A stretch of 47,472 nt of DNA. Origin: a virus. Its lineage: Duplodnaviria > Heunggongvirae > Uroviricota > Caudoviricetes. The notes below the pieces were generated by a model. That model did no database searches. It was given only the letters and a program-made list of their open reading frames with translations, and was not told the DNA's origin. A program made the position numbers and the translations under genes. How positions within the stretch are numbered: the stretch's first letter is position 1; every line of letters begins with the position of its first letter. Shown here piece after piece: positions 4,494 to 19,299 of the stretch. The DNA is taken from the IMG/VR virus record IMGVR_UViG_2698536559_000020; one strand, written 5' to 3'.

Positions 4494-5318
4494 TCAGGCG
4501 GTGAAAGTACCAATAAAGGTTTCTACTTTGCTGTCTTTGAATTTCTCAACAAGCAGATCACGAAATTCGTTAGCCATTTCTTCCTGCATCGCTTCCAGCT
4601 GAATAATGCGCAGAACCAGTACAGGACGATCGCCAGTGATAATGCTGAGGCGTAATTTAAACGGACGTTCTTTCAGGCCTTCAAACGGAACGCATTTAAA
4701 TTCAAATGCCACTGGCATAATGTCTTTGGTTTTCGCTTCGACAGACTCCATCAGAGAGCGTTTGCCGCTGAAGTCATTGTCTTCAAAATCAGCGGTCTGG
4801 TTTGCTTCAATTGTGATTTTACGGACTGCCGCAGCCGCTTTGGTTGCCTGAATGGTGTCACCATTAGCATCAAAGCCCACAAGGTAGTCGGCCCAGTCTT
4901 CAATCCATTCTGCCAGTGACTTCTGGGAGTTACGCTCGCCGTTAACAGACAACAGGGCAGAGAACGGTGCTGTCTTTTTCAGTTTGAGAGTGGCGGTGTT
5001 ATCTGCGTGACCTGGTTCATCAATAGTACCCAGGTTAAGCACACTGACGGCTCGCATATTATCGGCATCGATAAAGCAGCGGGTGCCTTCATCTGCAAGA
5101 TCTTTAGAATAACGGGTAAAGTCATCGATGCTGGCAGTGGAAAGCGCACCACGGAAACGGAAGCGATTTAAATTAAATTTTTCCAGATCATGAATGCGGA
5201 AATTTTCAGGTAATGCCACTGCGTCGGCACCAATCTTACTGATAATTTCATTAACACCCTGAGCAGAAATAAGGGCATGGATTTGATTAATTGCGGTTGC
5301 GTCTAAGTTCTGAGACAT
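4494..5318 (-). CDS. YfdQ-like (DUF2303) prophage protein, 274 aa
   Basis: size and position next to the HD hydrolase match the CPS-53/KplE1 yfdQ-yfdR pair; recognition by recall only. Confidence 0.5.
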
Positions 5319-5383
5319 AATAAGTCCTCACTATATAAAGATATTCAGTGATGAGATAAATAATCAGTTAATTAAGAACGATA

Positions 5384-5746
5384 TTAATGACCTGCTGCGC
5401 GGAGTTTTCCGTCAGGTTCACCGGCAAGAGTCAGTAATTGTCCCTGGTCTTCCTGCAGAATAGTCAGGCGACCACCGCGATTGACATACATCGGCGTTTC
5501 GGTGGTGTCTTCTTCGGAAATTTTCCCGCGGTTAGTCGGGCGAACATATGAGAGTTTGTGTTTGATTTTCACACGGTTCTCATCAAATGGTTCGATTTCC
5601 AGGTTGAGTGAGACCTTCCCTTTGGTTTTCGTGTTCATCACACCGGAAGCGACTTCACTGAGAACTGCGCCGATTTTGGTTTCAAATACGCCGCCGTCCA
5701 GCTCCCCGATAAATGCCTGCACATCAGTACTGCGTTCGCTAGCCAT
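5384..5746 (-). CDS. hypothetical early protein (120 aa)
   Basis: ATG at 5746 preceded by GAGGAG 7 nt upstream; the track ORF extends to 6064 but that extension is GC-rich Arg/Pro/Cys-rich sequence with no RBS. Confidence 0.5.
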   Translation of the reverse strand: MASERSTDVQAFIGELDGGVFETKIGAVLSEVASGVMNTKTKGKVSLNLEIEPFDENRVKIKHKLSYVRPTNRGKISEEDTTETPMYVNRGGRLTILQEDQGQLLTLAGEPDGKLRAAGH

Positions 5747-6532: not shown

Positions 6533-6621
6533 TCTCCTGCCATGTGCGAATCATCCGGTCATTCATACGCCACCGTCGGCTACTTCGTGGGAGTCCTGCC
6601 TGTTCGTTACTGCAACATCTT

Positions 6622-6665
6622 TAAGTTGTAATCTAGTTGTTGTTTTGGTTGTTGTCAACAACTTT
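6622..6665 (-). promoter_or_regulatory. leftward early promoter (pL-like) with overlapping operator half-sites
   Basis: on the minus strand TTGACA (6658-6653), 17 nt spacer, TAGATT (6635-6630); AAGTTGT / ACAACTT operator-like motifs shared with the cI-cro intergenic region. Confidence 0.5.
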
Positions 6666-6720
6666 ATGTGGTTTTGACGGATGTGAAATGGGGGCTAGGG
6701 TTATCAAAAAAGGAGGTTGT

Positions 6721-6825
6721 ATGGACGATGCGCTTTTAATTACACAATGGACACTTTCCTTCCGTGATTGGAAACTCTCAAATCACGGGAGGAAGATTGA
6801 AAAGGCGGGTAATAATGGTAACTAA
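6721..6825 (+). CDS. candidate small protein (34 aa) between OL and the cI 3' end
   Basis: strong SD AAGGAGG with 5 nt spacing to ATG; short; no homology recognised. Confidence 0.3.
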   Translation: MDDALLITQWTLSFRDWKLSNHGRKIEKAGNNGN

Positions 6826-6852
6826 ATTTCTGAAGGAGTGTTTTTTGATGCA

Positions 6853-7539
6853 TTACCAAGTGCGCGATGACCAGAATACTCTACCTATAACGTGAATTCT
6901 GGAACGCCTATCTTCGAAGGTGAGTATTTCATCTGGATACTCATCTTTATTGAAACTTCTTAGAATCAGACCACCGTCAGGTAAATTGATCAATATTTTA
7001 ACTCTAAGTAATACGCCATCACGTATAGCATAAAGATCCCCATCACGAATAGGAACTGTTTGGGAAACATCAACAGCAACAAAATCTCCATTGTTAAGTA
7101 CAGGTAGTAAACTATTACCCCAAATTTTTACGATCTTTGCATTGGAGACACATACACCAGCTTTCCTTAAATCAATCCTTCTTAGCGGGAACCAGTCTAC
7201 AGTTGATTCAACTATTTCAGCCAAACATCCATTACCCGCTGATAACTCGACATCTAGGACAGGAATGTTTGCAAAAATGTCAGGATCTAATGTTGTACTT
7301 TCAGCCTCCTTTACAACAAGGTTTGGGAAAGACGCGTTATCCTCAATGCCCAATTGCAACCACTTTTGAGAAACCCCTAACACTTTAGCAATCTCTTTAA
7401 TTTTCCGAGGCTGTTGAGTTTCTCCATTCTCGATTTTCGCTACGGATTGTTGTGAAAGCCCAATTTTTTCAGCTAGTTGCGCCTGACTCATTCCTGCTTT
7501 TTCTCTTTCGCTTTTTAGTCTTTCTGCCAATGTTTTCAC
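6853..7539 (-). CDS. CI-like prophage repressor (XRE HTH plus S24 LexA-like peptidase domain); GTG start
   Basis: N-terminal HTH (…MSQAQLAEKIGLSQQSVAKIENG…) and C-terminal S24 autocleavage domain; GTG start with GAGGGGG SD; divergent from a cro-like gene. Confidence 0.8.
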   Translation of the reverse strand: MKTLAERLKSEREKAGMSQAQLAEKIGLSQQSVAKIENGETQQPRKIKEIAKVLGVSQKWLQLGIEDNASFPNLVVKEAESTTLDPDIFANIPVLDVELSAGNGCLAEIVESTVDWFPLRRIDLRKAGVCVSNAKIVKIWGNSLLPVLNNGDFVAVDVSQTVPIRDGDLYAIRDGVLLRVKILINLPDGGLILRSFNKDEYPDEILTFEDRRSRIHVIGRVFWSSRTW

Positions 7540-7559
7540 AACATATCCCCCTCGTTTTT

Positions 7560-7676
7560 ATTGAGGTTACAACTTTATGTTTTAGCTTTCCAACATCTAA
7601 AAGTTGTGATAAAAGTTGTTGTAGTTGTATAATCGAAGTTATCAACAACTTTACTACTTACAGATAGGAGAAAGCT
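7560..7676. promoter_or_regulatory. OR region: PR (TTGTGA, 18 nt, TATAAT at 7628-7633), divergent PRM, repeated AAGTTGT/ACAACTT operator motifs
   Basis: consensus -10, multiple copies of the palindromic half-sites also seen at 6620-6670. Confidence 0.5.
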
Positions 7677-7925
7677 ATGACACCTGAGCAATTAGCCTTA
7701 TCAGAGGCAATCGCTCTGGCTGGTGGTCAATCAGAATTGGCTCGGAAGCTCACAGCCAGCAGTGGTCGTTTAGTAAAGCAACAACATGTCTGGAACTGGT
7801 TGAACAGAGAAAAGCGTCCCCCTGCAAAGCTCTCGATATTCATTGAAATGACCACTGGCGTATCAAAAGAAAAATTACGTCCAGATATTTTTCAAAAGAT
7901 TAAAGACTTATCAGATGGAAAGTAA
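7677..7925 (+). CDS. Cro-like / YdaS-family HTH regulator
   Basis: small HTH protein divergent from cI; AGGAGA SD. Confidence 0.65.
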   Translation: MTPEQLALSEAIALAGGQSELARKLTASSGRLVKQQHVWNWLNREKRPPAKLSIFIEMTTGVSKEKLRPDIFQKIKDLSDGK

Positions 7926-8505
7926 CCACAGTTTTAAGGAGATAGCCGTGGGTAAGCATCACTGGAAAGTAGAAAAACAGCCTGAGTGGTACGTGAAAGC
8001 TGTCAGAAAAACTATCGCGGCGTTGCCGGGTGGTTACGCTGAAGCAGCTGAGTGGCTGGATGTAACAGAGAACGCTTTATTCAATCGCCTTCGTGCCGAT
8101 GGCGATCAGATTTTCCCGCTGGGATGGGCAATGATTTTACAACGTGCTGGTGGAACTCACTTCATTGCTGACGCTGTGGCGCAGTCTGCAAATGGCGTCT
8201 TTGTGTCTCTTCCTGACGTCGAGGATGTGGACAACGCCGATATTAACCAGCGTCTGCTGGAAGTCATTGAACAGATCGGCAGTTATTCCAGACAGATTCG
8301 TTCAGCAATCGAAGACGGTGTAGTGGAACCGCATGAGAAGACAGCAATTAACGACGAACTGTATCTCTCAATTTCGAAGCTCCAGGAGCATGCAGCACTG
8401 GTCTACAAAATCTTCTGCGCTCCAGAAAAGAGTAACGCCCGCGAGTGTGCAGCTCCGGGCGTCGTGGCGTCGATTGCTTCTGGTTGTGGAGAAACTAACG
8501 CATGA
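7915..8505 (+). CDS. YdaT-like (CII-like) regulatory protein
   Basis: position directly after cro and overall resemblance to YdaT-family prophage proteins. Confidence 0.55.
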
Positions 8506-8840
8506 ACAGTTTAACAACACACTACCGTCGTTCGCAACTGATTGCGCTTCCTGTACCGGGTGGAAAAGCGAAGGTGGAATATTGCTATGCAGTGAATGTA
8601 CCAGGTGACAGGGAAATTGTAACCCACAGCTTTGCAGAGTGGGCTGTGGGTGATTTCAACCGGCAGAAGGAGACAGTCCTTTGCGACAAGTTAACCGCTG
8701 GTTCAAAGATCACTACGGAGTGCCCGTCAGAGTCATTCGTTGGGAGCCGGAAACACAACGGGTTATCTACCTCCGTGAAGGCTATGAACATGAGTGCTTC
8801 AGCCCGCTCGAACAGTTTCGTCGTAAATTCAGGGAAATAG
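8502..8840 (+). CDS. hypothetical protein; overlaps the next ORF in another frame (see findings)
   Basis: ATG overlaps the upstream stop (ATGA); N-terminal half looks protein-like, C-terminal half is Ser-rich low complexity. Confidence 0.35.
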
Positions 8841-8893
8841 AGGTCGGTCATGAGCCTGTTAATGACATCCCAGCCCATTGTGATAAATCGTGA
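8681..8893 (+). CDS. hypothetical protein (70 aa), TTG start
   Basis: AAGGAG SD 9 nt upstream of TTG; natural-looking sequence (…[25 protein letters not shown]…). Confidence 0.4.
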
Positions 8894-9842
8894 TCTTGCA
8901 TGCCGTATTGGTCTGAATGAGGCAATTGTGTTGCAGCAGCTTCATTACTGGCTGAATGAAACGAATTCCGGCACTGAGCATGGCGGAATTCGCTGGGTTT
9001 ATAACACGACAGAACAGTGGCTGGAGCAGTTTCCGTTCTGGTCAGAGTCCACTCTGAAACGCACATTTGCAAGCCTGAAATCACTTGGGGTTTTGCGTCG
9101 CGAGCAACTCAATAAATCGAAGCGTGACATGACCAACTTCTACACGATCAACTATGAAAGTGAGCTTCTAGAAGAGGTCAAAGTGAACGAATCCATCAGG
9201 TCAAAATGCACTTCTCCATCGGGTCAAAGTGACCTGATGGATGGGCGCAAAATGACACGATCCATTGGTTCAAAACGACACGCTGTCATCGGGTCAAAAT
9301 GGCCCAATGATCTTACAGAGAATACAACAGAGATTACTACAGAGAATAAAACCTCTTCTCGTCCGGACGCTTCGCAACCGGACACGCAGATGGCTGAACA
9401 GGATTTTTTAACTCGCCATCCTGATGCGGTTGTATTCAGCCCTAAAAAGCGCCAGTGGGGAACGCAGGATGATTTGACCTGCGCACAGTGGCTCTGGAAA
9501 AAAATCATCGCTCTGTACGAGCAGGCCGCCGAATGTGACGGCGAAGTGGTACGTCCTAAAGAACCGAACTGGACAGCCTGGGCAAACGAAATTCGCCTGA
9601 TGTGTGTACAGGATGGGCGTACTCACAAACAAATCTGCGAGATGTACAGCCGCGTCAGCCGCGATCCGTTCTGGTGCCGTAACGTGCTCAGCCCGTCGAA
9701 GCTGCGGGAAAAATGGGATGAGCTTTCCCTGCGCTTATCGCCGTCCGTCAGCACGCACACAGAAAAACGCGAAGACCCGTACTTCAAAGCCAGTTACGAC
9801 AACGTGGACTACAGCCAGATCCCGGCAGGATTCAGGGGGTGA
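8850..9842 (+). CDS. replication initiation protein (lambda O-like N-terminal domain)
   Basis: N-terminal …LNEAIVLQQLHYWL…IRWVYNTTEQWLEQFPFWSESTLKRTFASLKSLGVL… typical of phage replication initiators; iterons inside the gene. Confidence 0.7.
   Translation: MSLLMTSQPIVINRDLACRIGLNEAIVLQQLHYWLNETNSGTEHGGIRWVYNTTEQWLEQFPFWSESTLKRTFASLKSLGVLRREQLNKSKRDMTNFYTINYESELLEEVKVNESIRSKCTSPSGQSDLMDGRKMTRSIGSKRHAVIGSKWPNDLTENTTEITTENKTSSRPDASQPDTQMAEQDFLTRHPDAVVFSPKKRQWGTQDDLTCAQWLWKKIIALYEQAAECDGEVVRPKEPNWTAWANEIRLMCVQDGRTHKQICEMYSRVSRDPFWCRNVLSPSKLREKWDELSLRLSPSVSTHTEKREDPYFKASYDNVDYSQIPAGFRG
9190..9350. repeat. candidate origin of replication: four CATCGGGTCAAAATG-like iterons plus an 11 bp inverted repeat and an AT-rich repeat-containing flank
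   Basis: iterons at about 9194, 9218, 9262, 9288; inverted repeat CCATCAGGTCA...TGACCTGATGG; downstream ACAGAGAATA x2 AT-rich tract; located inside the initiator gene as in lambda. Confidence 0.5.
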
Positions 9843-13534: not shown

Positions 13535-14287
13535 ATGAACCTTGAGGCCTTACCAAAATATTACTCCCCAAAATCTCCAAAATTGAGCGATGACGCACTG
13601 GCGACAGGCTCGGGTGGTTTAACGATTACGGATGTGATGGCTGCGCAGGGGATGGTGCAGTCAAAAGCACCGCTTGGGTTTGCTTTATTCCTGGCAAAAG
13701 TTGGTGTTCAGGATCCTCAGTTTGCGATTGAAGGTCTGCTCAATTACGCGATGGCACTGGATAACCCGACATTGAACAAATTGAGTGAAGAAACCCGGTT
13801 ACAGATCATCCCTTACCTTGTGAATTTTGCCTTTGCTGATTATTCCAGGTCTGCGGCAAGTAAGGCTCGCTGTGAGCATTGTGCAGGTACGGGATTTCAT
13901 AATGTATTGCGCGAAGTGGTGAAACACTCCAGAAGCGGGGAGTCTGTTATCAAGGAAGAGTGGGTGAAGGAATTATGTCAGCATTGTCATGGTAAGGGAG
14001 AAGTCAGCACAGCGTGCAGAGGGTGTAAGGGTAAAGGTATTGTCCTGGATGAAAAAAGGACCCGGCTTCATGGCACGCCTGTTTATAAGATTTGTGGGCG
14101 TTGCAATGGAAACCGGTTTAGCCGTTTACCAACCACACTGGCGCGGCATCATGTCCAGAAGCTGATACCAGATCTGACGGATTATCAGTGGTACAAAGGA
14201 TATGCAGATGTCATTGATAAACTGGTTACAAAGTGCTGGCAGGAAGAAGCATATGCTGAGACACAATTGAGAAAAGTGACAAGATAA
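13535..14287 (+). CDS. late-gene antiterminator Q (QuuQ-like)
   Basis: CxxC…CxxC zinc-finger region, size 250 aa, immediately upstream of late promoter, terminator and lysis region. Confidence 0.7.
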   Translation: MNLEALPKYYSPKSPKLSDDALATGSGGLTITDVMAAQGMVQSKAPLGFALFLAKVGVQDPQFAIEGLLNYAMALDNPTLNKLSEETRLQIIPYLVNFAFADYSRSAASKARCEHCAGTGFHNVLREVVKHSRSGESVIKEEWVKELCQHCHGKGEVSTACRGCKGKGIVLDEKRTRLHGTPVYKICGRCNGNRFSRLPTTLARHHVQKLIPDLTDYQWYKGYADVIDKLVTKCWQEEAYAETQLRKVTR

Positions 14288-14673: not shown

Positions 14674-14749
14674 GGCCCTTTAGCTCAGTGGTCAGAGCGA
14701 GCGACTCATAATCGCCAGGTCGCTGGTTCAAGTCCAGCAAGGGCCACCA
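14674..14749 (+). tRNA. tRNA with CAU anticodon, ileX-like (tRNA-Ile2 lysidine type, or tRNA-Met)
   Basis: cloverleaf deduced by hand; anticodon loop CTCATAA; close to E. coli ileX sequence; CCA encoded. Confidence 0.75.
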
Positions 14750-14750
14750 G

Positions 14751-14827
14751 CCGTCACTAGCTCATCGGGACAGAGCATCAACCTTCTAAGTTGATTGTGC
14801 GGGGTTCAAGTCCCCGGTGACGGTCCA
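14751..14827 (+). tRNA. tRNA-Arg (UCU)
   Basis: perfect 7 bp acceptor stem CCGTCAC/GTGACGG, anticodon loop CTTCTAA, T-loop TTCAAGT, CCA encoded. Confidence 0.7.
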
Positions 14828-14829
14828 GT

Positions 14830-14905
<76 letters not shown>

Positions 14906-14908
14906 TAT

Positions 14909-14983
<75 letters not shown>

Positions 14984-15248
14984 GTGGACATGAGTTATAA
15001 AACTTGGCAGTGCTGATGTTTTCGTGGAGAGCGAAAATTCCCTTATCCATCTCCACTCTGTGACAGACGCAGGTCGCAGACTCAGCACTGTTTTTTTTAC
15101 AGCATTCAGATGGTGCGTTGTCTGTTTTGGTTCGGAGAGACAGGGTACGTAGCGCGCAGGACCTGGACTGATGACGCGCCATCTCAATGTCGTTAATATA
15201 AGAGGTGCCCCATCACCTCAAAAATAATATATGTCGTCTTATGCGTTC

Positions 15249-15275
15249 AACCGCCGTATATGGCGGTTTTTTTTA
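15249..15275 (+). terminator. rho-independent terminator
   Basis: CCGCC-GTATAT-GGCGG followed by T8. Confidence 0.6.
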
Positions 15276-15310
15276 TTCCCTCAATTTTCTGTTTATAGAG
15301 GTTATTCGCA

Positions 15311-15805
15311 ATGCGTAATGTGTCGTTTGACGTTCGCTATTCCTTTCATCTTGAAACGATGATGGCGACCCTGTACCGAAGGCTGGAATATCTGCTTTAT
15401 TTTATTCTGATGCTGGCTGGTGGGCTTGTTCTGGCAGATGTGGGTAATACCGCGTTACAGGGGCTGGTGGTCATCATTGTTGCTTTCACTGCGCTCACAC
15501 TTCGTCCCGCAAGAAATGCGCTGCTGTGTGAATCTCAGGCCGCAAGATACCGTGAGCTCATGCATGATTTTGAGTTTCATCCGGATGAAACAGAGTTTCC
15601 CGATATGGATGAAATTGAGCTGCATGACAACACCGCAATTGGCCTGCTGAGGAATGCTGCATACAAGAGAACGCTGATAGTGCTCGGGTATTCACAGGAG
15701 GCAAATGCCATTCATCTCACAATGATGGAGAAAATCGCAGCATGGTTTGCCGGTGATCTGCCGGAAGAGTGTGTGCCCGCTGGTGCAGTGGATAACGAAA
15801 TCTGA
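15311..15805 (+). CDS. hypothetical two-transmembrane-helix protein (moron between tRNAs and lysis cassette)
   Basis: two hydrophobic helices near the N-terminus followed by an acidic soluble domain; occupies the locus where lambdoid phages carry toxin/moron genes. Confidence 0.5.
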   Translation: MRNVSFDVRYSFHLETMMATLYRRLEYLLYFILMLAGGLVLADVGNTALQGLVVIIVAFTALTLRPARNALLCESQAARYRELMHDFEFHPDETEFPDMDEIELHDNTAIGLLRNAAYKRTLIVLGYSQEANAIHLTMMEKIAAWFAGDLPEECVPAGAVDNEI

Positions 15806-15911
15806 AAATGCCTGTTTTCAGTTGAGAGATACGCTCCGGAAGACCAAACTGATTAACGCAAAGGTAATACATTTATTGTTTTGAAAATCCGATCAGCACG
15901 TTTGCTTTTCT

Positions 15912-15964
15912 GCCAGCTCCCCCAGAGCTGGCTTTTTTTGAGGTCTGCTCCGGCAGGCTTTTTT
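15912..15964 (+). terminator. tandem rho-independent terminators upstream of the Rha cassette
   Basis: GCCAGCTC…GAGCTGGC then T7; then GGTCTGCTCCGGCAGGC then T6. Confidence 0.5.
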
Positions 15965-16104
15965 ATTTCCGCGCCACGCCCGGCGCATATCAAAAACCAC
16001 AGAGCCTTACAGAAATGAGCTTCGGAGAAACACCGTAATAAGCGGCGGCTTCTCTGTGGGCGGTGTTTCTGGGCGACGAGGCTCATTTCTGTAAGGAGAG
16101 CGTG

Positions 16105-16656
16105 ATGAACTATCCAACCGTTGTTAACGGCATTGATTTTCGCGATCTTGTTTTTGTGACAGGCAACGAGCCAGTGACGGATACCCGAAAGGTTGCCGTA
16201 GCATTTGGTAAAGAACATAAAGATGTATTGCGGAAAACAAGGGCCGTCATTCAACAATGCTCAAAAGAATTTGCAGAGCGCAATTTTGCGCTTTGCTATG
16301 AAAACAATGAGTTACAGAACGGTAAACCACAGCCTGTATATCGAATGACAAAAGACGGTTGGACGATGTTGGTATTTGGTTTTACGGGGAAGGCCGCAAT
16401 GACCTTTAAGGAAGCGTACATCCAGGCTTTCAACTGGATGGCGGAGCTTATTCGGCAGGGAGTGGCAAATCTTGAGGCTGAACGCAATGCCGTCATGCTG
16501 GAATACATGAAAGAGAAGGATGTTGCCAGTATGTCGGGGCGTTTGCTTAACCGCTGGGGAAGAGTGAAAAAGCCACAGCTTCAGGCAAGGATCGAACAAC
16601 TTGAGCAGCGAGGGCAGATATCCCTGCCCGGTATCGACAGCGTATTAACACACTGA
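16105..16656 (+). CDS. Rha-family phage regulatory protein (antirepressor-like)
   Basis: …TDTRKVAVAFGKEHKDVLRKTRAV… Rha signature; AAGGAG SD 6 nt upstream. Confidence 0.75.
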   Translation: MNYPTVVNGIDFRDLVFVTGNEPVTDTRKVAVAFGKEHKDVLRKTRAVIQQCSKEFAERNFALCYENNELQNGKPQPVYRMTKDGWTMLVFGFTGKAAMTFKEAYIQAFNWMAELIRQGVANLEAERNAVMLEYMKEKDVASMSGRLLNRWGRVKKPQLQARIEQLEQRGQISLPGIDSVLTH

Positions 16657-16873: not shown

Positions 16874-17368
16874 TTACCGCAGGGCTTTTTCAATTAACGG
16901 AAGTGCTGCCGGAATGTTCATTACCCCCTGAGTCAGTAATTGCAGGGTCAAATGTTTTATGGCGTCTGACGGAAGCTCTCGAAGTTTTGAAATCAGTCCC
17001 TTCTTCTGATCTTCAGGAATATTGGCAATCCGGATTATGTCCTCTATAGCAGTCAGGGTGCTGTGATGAAATTTTATGGTCTGAACTTTCAGTATGGCGC
17101 TCAGACCACCATCATTTCGCAGAAAATCAATGCCATTGATTGTGATTGCTGGCATCCAGACATGGCTGTATCCGCATGAGTCAAGTCGTAATCCACTGGT
17201 TATAAGACCATGACCTTCCAGATATAAAAGATTAGCAATCGCTGTTTTGTTGTCAGGGAATACCGATAACAGGCGCTTTAACTGCTCATTGTTTCTTATT
17301 TTGTCGGGGAATATGTCGTTGAGAGACGATAAGAGCTCGAGTTGCGTTTGACGATCGAACTTGTCCAT
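16874..17368 (-). CDS. hypothetical protein (164 aa), reverse-strand moron inside the late region
   Basis: AT-rich, protein-like helical sequence; the overlapping + strand ORF 16735..17049 looks less protein-like. Confidence 0.45.
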   Translation of the reverse strand: MDKFDRQTQLELLSSLNDIFPDKIRNNEQLKRLLSVFPDNKTAIANLLYLEGHGLITSGLRLDSCGYSHVWMPAITINGIDFLRNDGGLSAILKVQTIKFHHSTLTAIEDIIRIANIPEDQKKGLISKLRELPSDAIKHLTLQLLTQGVMNIPAALPLIEKALR

Positions 17369-17506: not shown

Positions 17507-18079
17507 ATGAAAACCTTCATCTGTACTGCCAGCGGTCCTTCGCTGTCTGCTGAGGACTGCCGGTTTATTGCGGACTGCGGTCTGCCTGTCATCGCCGTTA
17601 ACAGCACCTGGAAACGGGTTCCTTTTGCCACGCACGTGTTTGCCTGTGACTTCTCCTGGTGGAAGGCCTGCGTCCGTCACATCACCATTCCGGCTCAGCG
17701 CTGGACTGACAGCCGGGCTGCTCACAAGCGCTTCGGCATTAACTTCTTTCCTGAAGAGCGCGGCTCTCCGGTTAACTCCGGCAGACGGGCCATTGAGTTT
17801 GCGCTCTGGCTGGGAGCGGAGCGGGTGATTCTGCTGGGATATGACTGCTCCGTCTCACGCGGAACACACTGGCACGGTGACCATCCGGAGGGGCTTAAGA
17901 ACCCGACGGAGAACAGCACACGTCTGTGGCGGAGCGAATTTGAAAAACACGCGTCCGTACTGAATGCACGGGCGGAAATCATCAACTGTTCGGTGGAAAC
18001 AGCCCTGACCTGCTTTCCCCGGCGACGGCTCAGGGAGGTTCTTGATGCCACTGTCAAAAAGTCGCCCCGTGTATGTTAA
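17507..18079 (+). CDS. DUF115 / GT42-like (Cst sialyltransferase-like) glycosyltransferase-domain protein
   Basis: N-terminal …ASGPSL… then …VIAVN…, …FACDFSWW…, …ILLGYDC… resemble the GxGPSL / RCNQF / LSGIDFY motifs of Cst-II-type enzymes; no SD upstream, start immediately follows a hairpin. Confidence 0.4.
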   Translation: MKTFICTASGPSLSAEDCRFIADCGLPVIAVNSTWKRVPFATHVFACDFSWWKACVRHITIPAQRWTDSRAAHKRFGINFFPEERGSPVNSGRRAIEFALWLGAERVILLGYDCSVSRGTHWHGDHPEGLKNPTENSTRLWRSEFEKHASVLNARAEIINCSVETALTCFPRRRLREVLDATVKKSPRVC

Positions 18080-18977
18080 GGGAATGCACGGGATTGGCGA
18101 CAACATTAACCAGCGCATGTTCATTGATGCGCTTTCGCGTGCCGGATACAGGGTGGAGCTACAGACACCCCTGCCACAGCTTTACGCGGACCTGCCGGGG
18201 GTGACCTTCATTCCCTCGGAGACCACCCTGCGTACCCAGCAGAAAAATGAGCAGCGGGCCTACAGGAGCCTGCCGTACATCGCCCGACCCTCACCGGATG
18301 CACAGCGTATCCGCATCATGCATGACCGGCAGAGCAAGGCGCAGGGGGAAAGCGTCGTTATGACAATGACACGACAGTTCGGGATTGCGCCAGCTCCGGC
18401 GTCTCTTCCGTCGTTCAGGCGTTCATCACTGGTGGTGACCGACAAACCGGTGGCGGTGATTCGTCCGACAACGGTGCGCAATGAGTGGAAGACCACCTCT
18501 CGTGGACCGCTGAATGAGTACATCGACATGGCCTCGCGGATGCTCGCTTCGCGCGGTTATCACTGTGTGAGTGTGGCAGACCTTAACGAGTCTGATGCCT
18601 GTGAAAAGCGTCGCGAATGGATTGACGGCATGGTGCCGTTTGCGCATCAGCGATTTCATCACGGTGAGCTGTCACCGGAAGAACTGCTGTCACTGACTGA
18701 GAGCGCGGCTGTGGTGGTCTGCGGGGACTGTCTGCTGCTGCACGCAGCGATAGCGTACGGTACCCCGCTGCTGGCCATTCTTGGTGGCATGGGCGGTGCC
18801 TGTCGTCCTGAGATTATTGCTGACCCGTCCCACTATGACCTGTCGAAGGTGTGCTTCATTAAGCCGGACAATTTCTGTCTGTGTCATGAGATGACGCACG
18901 ACTGCGACAAGCACATCAGCGGAGCGGAAGGCAAAATCGCGGCGTTTCTGGATGGCCCCGTATTCAGGGGAGGCTGA
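18045..18977 (+). CDS. GT9-like (heptosyltransferase-fold, GT-B) glycosyltransferase
   Basis: N-terminal …GIGDNINQ…, C-terminal …VVVCGDCLLLHAAIAYGTPLLAILGG… resemble GT9 motifs; GGGAGG SD; overlaps upstream gene by 35 nt. Confidence 0.45.
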   Translation: MPLSKSRPVYVKGMHGIGDNINQRMFIDALSRAGYRVELQTPLPQLYADLPGVTFIPSETTLRTQQKNEQRAYRSLPYIARPSPDAQRIRIMHDRQSKAQGESVVMTMTRQFGIAPAPASLPSFRRSSLVVTDKPVAVIRPTTVRNEWKTTSRGPLNEYIDMASRMLASRGYHCVSVADLNESDACEKRREWIDGMVPFAHQRFHHGELSPEELLSLTESAAVVVCGDCLLLHAAIAYGTPLLAILGGMGGACRPEIIADPSHYDLSKVCFIKPDNFCLCHEMTHDCDKHISGAEGKIAAFLDGPVFRGG

Positions 18978-18978
18978 T

Positions 18979-19299
18979 ATGCCTGACAAATCACCGGGAT
19001 TCTGGATGTCCCTGCTGGCCTGGTTTCGGGCGGAGCCGGATGTGTCTGTTGCTGCTGCAACCGGGCTGATGGCCCTGCTGCGTTCCTGTCAGCAGGGAAA
19101 GTCACTGAGGGCGATGTTGCTGGACTCATGCATCTGCGCCTTTCTGGCGTTTTATCTGCGTGATGCGCTGGGGCTGTGCGGTGTGGACCAGGACTGGGCC
19201 ATGATTCTGGGCGTGGTGCTGGGGTATCTGGGGACAGAGTTCATCCGCACCCTGCTGATTCGCTGGGCGGAGCGTCGCGCCGGGATTACCCGACACTGA
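18979..19299 (+). CDS. class I holin (lambda S-like)
   Basis: …CICAFLAFYLRDALGLCG…ILGVVLGYLGTEFIRTLLIRWAERRAG… aligns with lambda S; followed by endolysin. Confidence 0.75.
   Translation: MPDKSPGFWMSLLAWFRAEPDVSVAAATGLMALLRSCQQGKSLRAMLLDSCICAFLAFYLRDALGLCGVDQDWAMILGVVLGYLGTEFIRTLLIRWAERRAGITRH

Follow-up and report, generated by a model that had tools for sequence, protein, structure and literature searches.

A putative stand-alone SLATT-like membrane effector encoded by temperate phages of enterobacteria

Introduction

Among the predicted "suicide pore" effectors of bacterial immune systems, SLATT proteins are some of the commonest, occurring in antiphage signaling systems based on cyclic oligonucleotides (CBASS), in defense-associated reverse transcriptase (DRT) systems and among the accessory proteins of RADAR (restriction through an RNA-acting adenosine deaminase). 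To our knowledge, nearly all accounts treat them as the arm that acts downstream of a sensor or signal generator. Here we report on a gene for a 164-amino-acid protein at positions 15311..15805 (+ strand) of the IMG/VR virus record IMGVR_UViG_2698536559_000020 (Caudoviricetes), whose entire stretch of 47,472 nucleotides is referred to as the window in the following. The product probably belongs to a divergent branch of SLATT_4-like proteins, and the new element is a stand-alone, prophage-borne SLATT-like protein which is missed by the current models.

Membrane proteins and toxins encoded by temperate phages provide further points of reference. RexB, the ion-channel effector of the RexAB abortive infection system of phage lambda, depolarises the cell on phage attack. 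In phages encoding Shiga toxin (Stx), accessory genes such as stx are located downstream of the gene for the late antiterminator Q and of phage tRNA genes, and upstream of the lysis genes; as generally found in lambdoid phages, RNA polymerase modified by Q is able to pass terminators. With respect to the SLATT proteins themselves, SLATT_4 (PF18186) has been described as the effector of type I CBASS (PMC11381338), and the SLATT proteins in general as predicted pore-forming effectors (PMC9226505), which are used by CBASS, DRT10/UG17, DRT3, AbiA and RADAR (PMC9226505; bioRxiv 10.64898/2026.04.29.721553). The systems combining SLATT proteins with reverse transcriptases also occur in prophages and satellites (PMC9122126; bioRxiv 10.64898/2026.04.29.721553).

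Architecture of the predicted protein

The coding sequence was identified from the list of open reading frames (ORFs) and the sequence; it starts with ATG and is preceded by the Shine-Dalgarno sequence AGAGG (15297..15301, +), located 9 nt 5' of the start codon. Its product is a member of the family phrog_6315 (listed as of unknown function), residues 3-151 matching positions 6-151 of the 152-position PHROG profile with E = 2.4e-27. Residues ~4-89 (15320..15577) represent a SLATT-like core, as judged from hydropathy, charge, AlphaFold2 modelling and the alignment to the models SLATT_4 and PDLC00712. This core consists of an amphipathic N-terminal helix containing the motif RYSFHLE, a first transmembrane (TM) helix (TM1, residues ~27-43, 15389-15439), a short periplasmic turn, a second TM helix (TM2, residues ~48-64, 15452-15502; both assigned by hydropathy), a kink at Pro66 and a cytoplasmic helix covering residues 66-89. 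Because Arg23 and Arg24 precede the hairpin and Arg65 and Arg68 follow it, a topology with both termini in the cytoplasm (N-in/C-in) is predicted. The C-terminal part is acidic, with 19 Asp or Glu versus 7 Lys or Arg among the 99 residues from position 66 to 164, and it contains a family-specific cytoplasmic helical domain (residues ~99-151, 15605..15763), which is evident from family alignments, motif counts and the AlphaFold2 model. The domain is closed by the conserved motif AWFAGDLP (residues 144-151, 15740-15763), as seen from the alignments and motif counts, the full motif reading LTxxEKxxAW(F/L)AGDLP across the family.

An AlphaFold2 model of the protein, calculated from an alignment of 126 sequences, reached a mean predicted local distance difference test value (pLDDT) of 92 and a predicted template modelling score (pTM) of 0.84; it replaced a poor model obtained with six sequences only (pLDDT 55). 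The model contains a long helix (residues 4-41), a turn, a second helix (47-64), the kink at the invariant Pro66, a third helix (66-89), and four short helices making up the C-terminal domain (99-104, 111-124, 128-133 and 138-146). Two TM helices enclosed between cytoplasmic N- and C-terminal helices, the arrangement typical of SLATT proteins, are therefore apparent from hydropathy, the positive-inside pattern and the model alike. The protein is accordingly predicted to be a short two-helix hairpin of the inner membrane with an acidic cytoplasmic C-terminal part. This agrees well with the original prediction, made by a model from the sequence letters alone, which had described two membrane helices followed by an acidic soluble domain and had proposed to determine the TM topology; hydropathy and the positive-inside rule now give the two-helix hairpin in N-in/C-in orientation.

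Relationship to SLATT proteins

Comparison of 126 family members with libraries of hidden Markov models (HMM) consistently pointed to SLATT proteins. In NCBIfam, 53 of the members match SLATT_4 (best E-value 6.3e-6), 16 match SLATT_1, and two each SLATT_5 and SLATT_fungal, while families other than SLATT are nowhere near. In PADLOC, the CBASS "Effector 2TM" model PDLC00712 is matched by 14 members (best 2.8e-8) and PDLC00710 by four, and two SLATT models associated with reverse transcriptases by three members each (best 2.7e-4). Pfam yielded faint matches only, to SLATT_4 and PycTM. The same picture emerges from consensus sequences, which were derived for the whole family and for five clusters. 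The whole-family consensus aligns colinearly with SLATT_4 (residues 11-109 to model positions 8-127 of 154; E = 3e-6, 27.1 bits) and also matches SLATT_1 (E 0.008). Altogether, five of the six consensus sequences match SLATT_4 with E-values from 3e-6 to 0.002, the remaining one showing values of 0.27 for SLATT_4 and 0.066 for SLATT_fungal, and one subclade consensus aligns to PDLC00712 (residues 5-90 to positions 16-106 of 171, 4.1e-6). None of the six reversed consensus sequences matched any SLATT model, which argues against composition alone as an explanation of the signal. At the level of predicted structures, a Foldseek search of BFVD returned a SLATT-domain protein as top match and about ten among the named proteins of the top 35 (probability up to 0.97), making SLATT proteins the commonest named fold matches in this library. 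The last ~45 residues of the protein, including AWFAGDLP, are not covered by the SLATT models and represent a feature peculiar to the family.

Taken together, these matches make it probable that the family represents a divergent SLATT_4-like branch. The original prediction had recognised no family, which holds true at curated thresholds but not below them, where SLATT_4 and its relatives appear. The remote homology search it had suggested has thus uncovered a sub-threshold SLATT signal recurring in NCBIfam, PADLOC and BFVD.

Conservation of the gene and its relatives

The gene is real, conserved and under purifying selection. The ratio of nonsynonymous to synonymous substitution rates (dN/dS) is 0.29 relative to an 86% identical copy found in another lambdoid phage, and a clade of the Fels-2 type, represented by 46 distinct alleles from 65 loci, shows a median dN/dS of 0.066 with 64 of the 65 copies intact. 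The identical protein is encoded on about 590 public E. coli contigs, where it is always named "hypothetical", and the Fels-2 version on at least 1000 contigs of Salmonella and other enterobacteria. A profile search of 1.84 billion representative sequences yielded 203 relatives at E <= 1e-3, 100 of them at E <= 1e-10; nearly all of them consist of 150-180 amino acids, with a typical length of ~155, and align from end to end. Lack of conservation across related prophages had been named as counter-evidence when the gene was first pointed out, and the 203 representatives and both dN/dS values show the opposite.

The Fels-2 record NC_010463 (locus L002 in our numbering of family loci) carries the 152-aa family gene at 4977-5435 (+) without annotation, and the antisense ORF STM2733.1 (4890-5294, -) is annotated instead. 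The same 46 alleles give a dN/dS of 0.066 in the frame of the family gene versus 1.07 in that of STM2733.1, and because of this difference the strand annotated in the record is probably the wrong one.

Genomic sites of the relatives and replacement of sieB

Approximately 100 family loci were collected and mapped, and about two dozen of them, covering five context types, were inspected for partner genes; ~60 further loci of the Fels-2 type were not inspected singly for partners. Judged from called genes, Pfam labels and ORF maps, the inspected loci contain no cyclase, TIR, SLOG or reverse transcriptase, and in the mapped loci the family gene is not accompanied by any conserved large protein-coding partner. 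Likewise, neither a cyclase nor a reverse transcriptase is named in the annotation of a near-identical prophage by the Prokaryotic Genome Annotation Pipeline (PGAP). Upstream of the family gene, a short proline-rich ORF, which is described below, is the only element conserved across the mapped loci.

The family genes occupy several accessory sites. First, they are found in the region between Q and the holin gene, where the copies of the window and of loci L004-7, L103 and L104 run in the direction of the late genes and that of a Xenorhabdus locus (L016) is antisense. A second site is the immunity region, where the genes lie between the leftward early (pL) genes and the repressor gene on the strand opposite to both (L003, L008, L017, L022-33, L042-44 and L063). 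In P2-like phages of the Fels-2 type, the gene is found antisense in the early operon, with fil/cII on one side of it and the replication genes on the other, and shares its strand with cI and int. Finally, one copy (L019) is located in a baseplate cluster. This 172-aa member (7001-7519 of a Symbiopectobacterium contig; profile E = 3.7e-32) is co-oriented with its neighbours, which are Gp138_N-like and sheath-initiator genes, is devoid of the short upstream ORF and fits neither the immunity-region nor the late-region pattern.

The immunity-region site corresponds to the position and strand of sieB in lambda and Rac, between the pL genes and the repressor gene and oriented against pL, and is occupied by many relatives; the copy of the window is located in the late region instead. 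The replacement is directly visible from a comparison of a Rac-like prophage (L003, 7501-9172) with Rac of E. coli K-12 (L105, 3916-4679): the family cassette stands in place of sieB on the same strand, the conserved flanks being kilR/kilS at one end and ydaF-racR-ydaS at the opposite end, and the replacing block consists of the leader, the short ORF, the SLATT-like gene and an ORF of 86 amino acids. Kinship to the exclusion proteins of lambda was also considered and was rejected on the basis of hhalign, which gave a probability of 0.3% for the family versus lambda SieB and no homology to lambda RexB; moreover, SieB (PF14163) is not among the Pfam matches of the 126 members. Since sieB is replaced without any homology in the profile comparison, different proteins appear to fill one niche. 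The fact that unrelated temperate phages carry the gene as a single insert, and at several different accessory sites, supports the view of the gene as an accessory (moron) gene of temperate enterobacterial phages, which is in line with the moron locus originally proposed.

A proline-rich mini-ORF and a covarying leader in the relatives

In approximately 89 of 100 loci, the family gene is preceded by a mini-ORF ending 7-12 nt before its ATG, so that the stop codon of the mini-ORF falls within or adjacent to the Shine-Dalgarno sequence. Examples are found at 4880-4967 of the Fels-2 locus L002, ~7888-7992 of L003, ~4405-4502 of L022, ~6877-6975 of L017 and ~6860-6992 of L016. The encoded peptides consist of 26-40 residues with a proline-rich C-terminal half, as seen in the sequences of the Fels-2 type, MSDSDNFHVLPRPAPAPKPEPGQDKK, and of the lambdoid type, M(L/R)INQFG..PDGQVPYRPAPSPRPPSKP. 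Their common core, [VL]P[YR]RPxPxPxP, is retained even though the associated two-TM proteins are only ~33% identical. The mini-ORF may code for a leader peptide that causes stalling, or alternatively for a small protein acting as a partner; its loose resemblance to proline-rich leaders and to PRP motifs like those of proline-rich antimicrobial peptides is a speculative assumption of ours.

A second element, GCCGG(G)A-TTxTTAxCC-ACG-(C)CCGGC-GCGTGG, is located ~60-100 nt further upstream of the mini-ORF, corresponding to ~140-230 nt upstream of the family ATG (~4800-4835 of L002, ~6777-6812 of L017 and ~7800-7835 of L003). It can fold into two overlapping and mutually exclusive helices, A (GCCGGG...CCCGGC) and B (CCACGC...GCGTGG), the latter being built from the loop of A and enclosing the 3' arm of A. 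The 6 bp of helix A are perfect in 17 of 19 diverse sequences versus 2% of shuffled ones, and at least four compensatory pairs of arms occur (GCCGGG/CCCGGC, ACCGGG/CCCGGT, GCCAGA/TCTGGC and GCCGAA/TTCGGC). Helix B covaries as well (CACG/CGTG, CGTG/CACG, CATG/CATG and TGTG/CACA) and is the one chosen by RNAalifold, with two pairs showing the combinations AU:9/GC:8 and CG:10/UA:9. The lambdoid group contains a third covarying hairpin after the leader element. A search of the leaders of the relatives against Rfam gave no match. Such elaborate control would fit a toxic product.

Neither element accompanies the gene of the window: the leader element was not found in the window even with three mismatches allowed, the mini-ORF is absent, and both are missing from all members of the late-region subclade. 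Because mini-ORF and leader are kept in most relatives and gone from the late subclade, we read the window copy as a derived version that has lost the usual leader and translational control and come under control of the late operon.

Transcriptional context of the gene in the window

The window represents an E. coli prophage combining a lambdoid early region with a contractile tail and is 99.84% identical to the record NZ_CP027550 over 11913-47472. The immunity and early-right region (~6600-9770) differs from this otherwise 99.8% identical record, indicating a mosaic exchange of the repressor module, and annotation borrowed from NZ_CP027550 is for this reason reliable only from ~11900 on. The frameshifted terminase seen in the near-identical E. 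coli record does not apply to the window, where this ORF is intact.

The family gene is preceded by the gene for the late antiterminator Q (13535..14287, +; Antiterm PF03589 at 9e-54 in Pfam) and by an array of four tRNA genes (14674..14983, +), which was identified by ARAGORN, Rfam and the PGAP annotation of the 99.8% identical record and contains the anticodons CAU, Arg-UCU, Thr-UGU and Gly-UCC in this order. The first tRNA (14674-14749, +; anticodon CAT) is called Met by ARAGORN, and an identical gene is called tRNA-Ile by PGAP; the latter call would correspond to the lysidine-modified Ile2 type, like the ileZ-type tRNAs of Stx phages. Between the array and the gene, a terminator scan identified a strong intrinsic terminator (15249..15276, +) with a GC-rich stem of 8 bp (15249-15268) and a T-run, and two tandem intrinsic terminators (15912-15932 and 15940-15961; together 15912..15968, +) close the module downstream. 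Farther downstream follow Rha (16105-16656) and a lambda-family holin (~18979-19299), known from the annotation of the near-identical prophage. The location between tRNA cluster and Rha cassette and the terminator ahead of the gene had both been noticed before and are borne out by these coordinates. The similarity of Rha to that of Stx phages (86% identity) was considered as a locus marker and rejected, as the lysis genes of the latter precede their Rha gene.

A possible promoter of the gene, which had been suggested as well, was not recovered: a sigma-70 scan of 15000-15310 detected no site, so that none is apparent between the tRNAs and the ATG, the gap between the T-run of the terminator and the ATG is only 34 nt, and homology to the closest relative starts at 15298. 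By blastn against L004 and L006, the module shared with an unrelated lambdoid phage extends over 15298..15994 (+) and comprises ribosome-binding site, ORF and terminators, but no promoter and no leader; it is 83% identical to L004, with its 5' edge at the ribosome-binding site and its 3' edge beyond the terminators. Because the shared block starts at the ribosome-binding site, the latter, the ORF and the terminators appear to constitute the mobile module, and as this contains no promoter, transcription in the late-region subclade must enter from upstream. Consistent with this layout, the family gene of L006 follows 30 nt after another late gene, and a 78% identical relative (L104) shows the same order of tRNA-Thr, tRNA-Gly, terminator, ribosome-binding site and ATG as the window. 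Given its position between terminators and downstream of Q, the promoter scan and the module edge, the gene is probably expressed either via late transcripts antiterminated by Q upon induction or via weak read-through, and not by means of its own promoter. Rfam searches around the gene revealed nothing beyond the tRNAs, the DicF and cspA elements found elsewhere being unrelated.

Other genes of the same late region are of interest on their own. A further ORF of 164 amino acids on the opposite strand (16874-17368, -), located between Rha and a glycosyltransferase pair, has no Pfam hit and is labelled hypothetical in the near-identical record; because of its orientation against the late region it is another candidate for an accessory gene. 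The overlapping pair just upstream of the holin gene (17507-18977, +) codes for a 190-aa protein with weak similarity to MptE (PF01973) and a glycosyltransferase of family 9 (heptosyltransferase-like), and may represent a conversion module of the late operon that modifies lipopolysaccharide or other glycans.

Proposed function and alternative explanations

The reading we favour, to which we assign an even chance on the basis of sequence comparisons, is that of a stand-alone SLATT-like inner-membrane effector, encoded by a phage accessory gene and acting in exclusion or abortive infection. The protein would rest idle in the inner membrane, with the cytoplasmic C-terminal domain as a built-in sensor or gate; a trigger from a competing phage would cause it to oligomerise, and the oligomer would permeabilise or depolarise the membrane and abort the development of the competitor, thus occupying the niche of sieB or Rex. 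The small membrane effector of exclusion or abortive type that had been proposed for the locus gains support from the consistent sub-threshold SLATT signal.

Several observations weigh against this assignment. The protein of the window alone gives no hit in Pfam, NCBIfam or PADLOC, and all SLATT matches stay below the curated cut-off, the consensus reaching 27 bits versus the 55 bits set for the 154-position SLATT_4 model of NCBIfam (NF033632). The E-values of the BFVD Foldseek matches are weak (0.07-2), and searches of the PDB return generic helical hairpins only. The positional replacement of sieB is guilt by association, given the missing homology to SieB or RexB, and one relative (L019) is co-oriented inside a baseplate gene cluster. 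A late-transcribed pore former beside the phage's own holin could equally serve lysis. The literature provided no data on the family under the guessed Fels-2 locus tag STM2734 or under SLATT, phrog_6315 not having been used as a search term.

A more far-reaching version, which we regard as rather improbable, would turn the family into a self-contained SLATT immunity module, in which the AWFAGDLP domain senses a phage cue without messenger or reverse transcriptase, and leader and mini-ORF gate the ancestral form. The two-helix leader and the proline-rich mini-ORF, with its stop abutting the Shine-Dalgarno sequence of the effector, would then constitute a new cis-regulatory device coupling toxin synthesis to the state of translation, e.g. 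by ribosome stalling on the proline-rich sequence during phage attack, and the subclade of the window would have been rewired to Q-dependent late transcription.

Among the competing explanations, a role in lysogenic conversion or another membrane function, such as envelope or stress physiology or the control of induction, survives best, although we consider it unlikely. The SLATT likeness would then merely reflect a shared simple hairpin fold, as might be expected from the generic nature of helical hairpins and the sub-threshold scores; the relative in the tail/baseplate cluster and the glycan-modifying GT9 and MptE-like genes nearby in the same late region would also be compatible with such a role. 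It is less easily reconciled with the fact that forward, and not reversed, sequences match SLATT models, with the convergence of three independent HMM libraries and a fold library on SLATT, and with the replacement of sieB by the cassette.

Somewhat less probable still is superinfection exclusion without cell killing, i.e. a block of the entry of DNA from incoming phages or of some other early step of their infection, as known from T4 Imm, P22 SieA and HK97 gp15. A small prophage-borne inner-membrane protein with relatives at the immunity-region site would suit this function, and expression in lysogens is in keeping with the gene running against the lytic operons in Fels-2 phages and in the majority of lambdoid relatives. 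The SLATT-like signal points to a permeabilising effector instead, leader and mini-ORF of the relatives suggest tight control of a toxic product, and SieB and RexB, the only exclusion proteins compared, were both negative.

A lysis accessory of the Q-to-holin subclade, such as an auxiliary holin, antiholin or lysis-timing factor, ranks slightly lower again. It would account for the location of the window copy and all its nearest relatives in the late operon between Q and holin, with the L103 copy directly upstream of DUF1378 and holin genes, for the lack of a promoter of its own, and for the two-TM N-in/C-in hairpin, which resembles class II holins. Yet the window already contains a lambda-family holin and an endolysin, a protein of 164 amino acids with ~100 cytoplasmic residues is unlike known holins, and most family members are distant from lysis genes and oriented against the lytic operons. 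No holin family of Pfam is matched by a larger number of the 126 members, the only holin model listed, Phage_holin_7_1, being matched by one of them (E = 0.025), and the protein of the window shows no holin match in Pfam or PHROG.

A chance ORF or decaying pseudogene without function, which might be suspected from the annotation as "hypothetical" only and from the fact that, of 5426 complete E. coli genomes, only 3 contain it at high nucleotide identity, is excluded by the conservation data, namely the dN/dS values of 0.29 and 0.066, the 64 of 65 intact Fels-2-type copies, the 203 length-conserved representatives, the pLDDT of 92 and the occurrence of the exact protein on 590 contigs.

If the effector function applies, a single gene for a SLATT-type hairpin can make up an entire exclusion system, a "hypothetical protein" of Fels-2 and many lambdoid prophages receives a name, and an alternative to sieB is recognised at the classical immunity-region site. 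If the protein turns out to be a lysis or physiology factor, it represents an ordinary accessory gene. The solo architecture and the replacement of sieB are of interest, while the mini-ORF and the switching leader are more unusual, but lie outside the window; together, these two elements of the relatives offer a tractable model for the silencing of toxic membrane effectors.

Comparison with known systems

Of the described proteins, SLATT_4 (PF18186/NF033632) is most similar to the family, being the best and most frequent HMM match and showing the same order of elements over a comparable length (family members of ~155 amino acids versus a model of 154 positions). The family differs from the SLATT_4 proteins of type I CBASS by scores of about half the curated cut-off and by the ~45 C-terminal residues outside the model. 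In further contrast to type I CBASS, a CD-NTase/SMODS gene is not adjacent at any locus examined, the neighbours in the window being tRNAs, Rha, Q and unrelated phage genes, and unlike the CBASS effectors the family genes are carried singly by prophages, mostly behind a proline-rich mini-ORF. Weak matches connect the family to the SLATT proteins of reverse transcriptase systems (SLATT_5 of DRT10/UG17 and the accessories of DRT3, AbiA and UG23), as seen for three members with each PADLOC model and two with SLATT_5 of NCBIfam, but no reverse transcriptase or known non-coding RNA adjoins the family gene.

Among the exclusion proteins, SieB of lambda, P22 and Rac is likewise a small prophage membrane protein, and the relatives occupy its genomic niche, which lies between the pL genes and the repressor gene, on the same strand; the family shows no sequence or profile similarity to it, and the copy of the window is found in the late region rather than at the sieB site. 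Lambda RexB is comparable by the proposed logic of a membrane protein encoded by a prophage and depolarising the cell when phages attack, but shows no similarity, contains four TM helices and needs the sensor RexA, whereas no partner was found here. Finally, the protein of the window is unrelated to Stx, but its gene resembles stx by its site between Q and holin: it is located downstream of Q and the tRNAs, upstream of the lysis genes and behind terminators, and because of these terminators its expression would likewise depend on Q.

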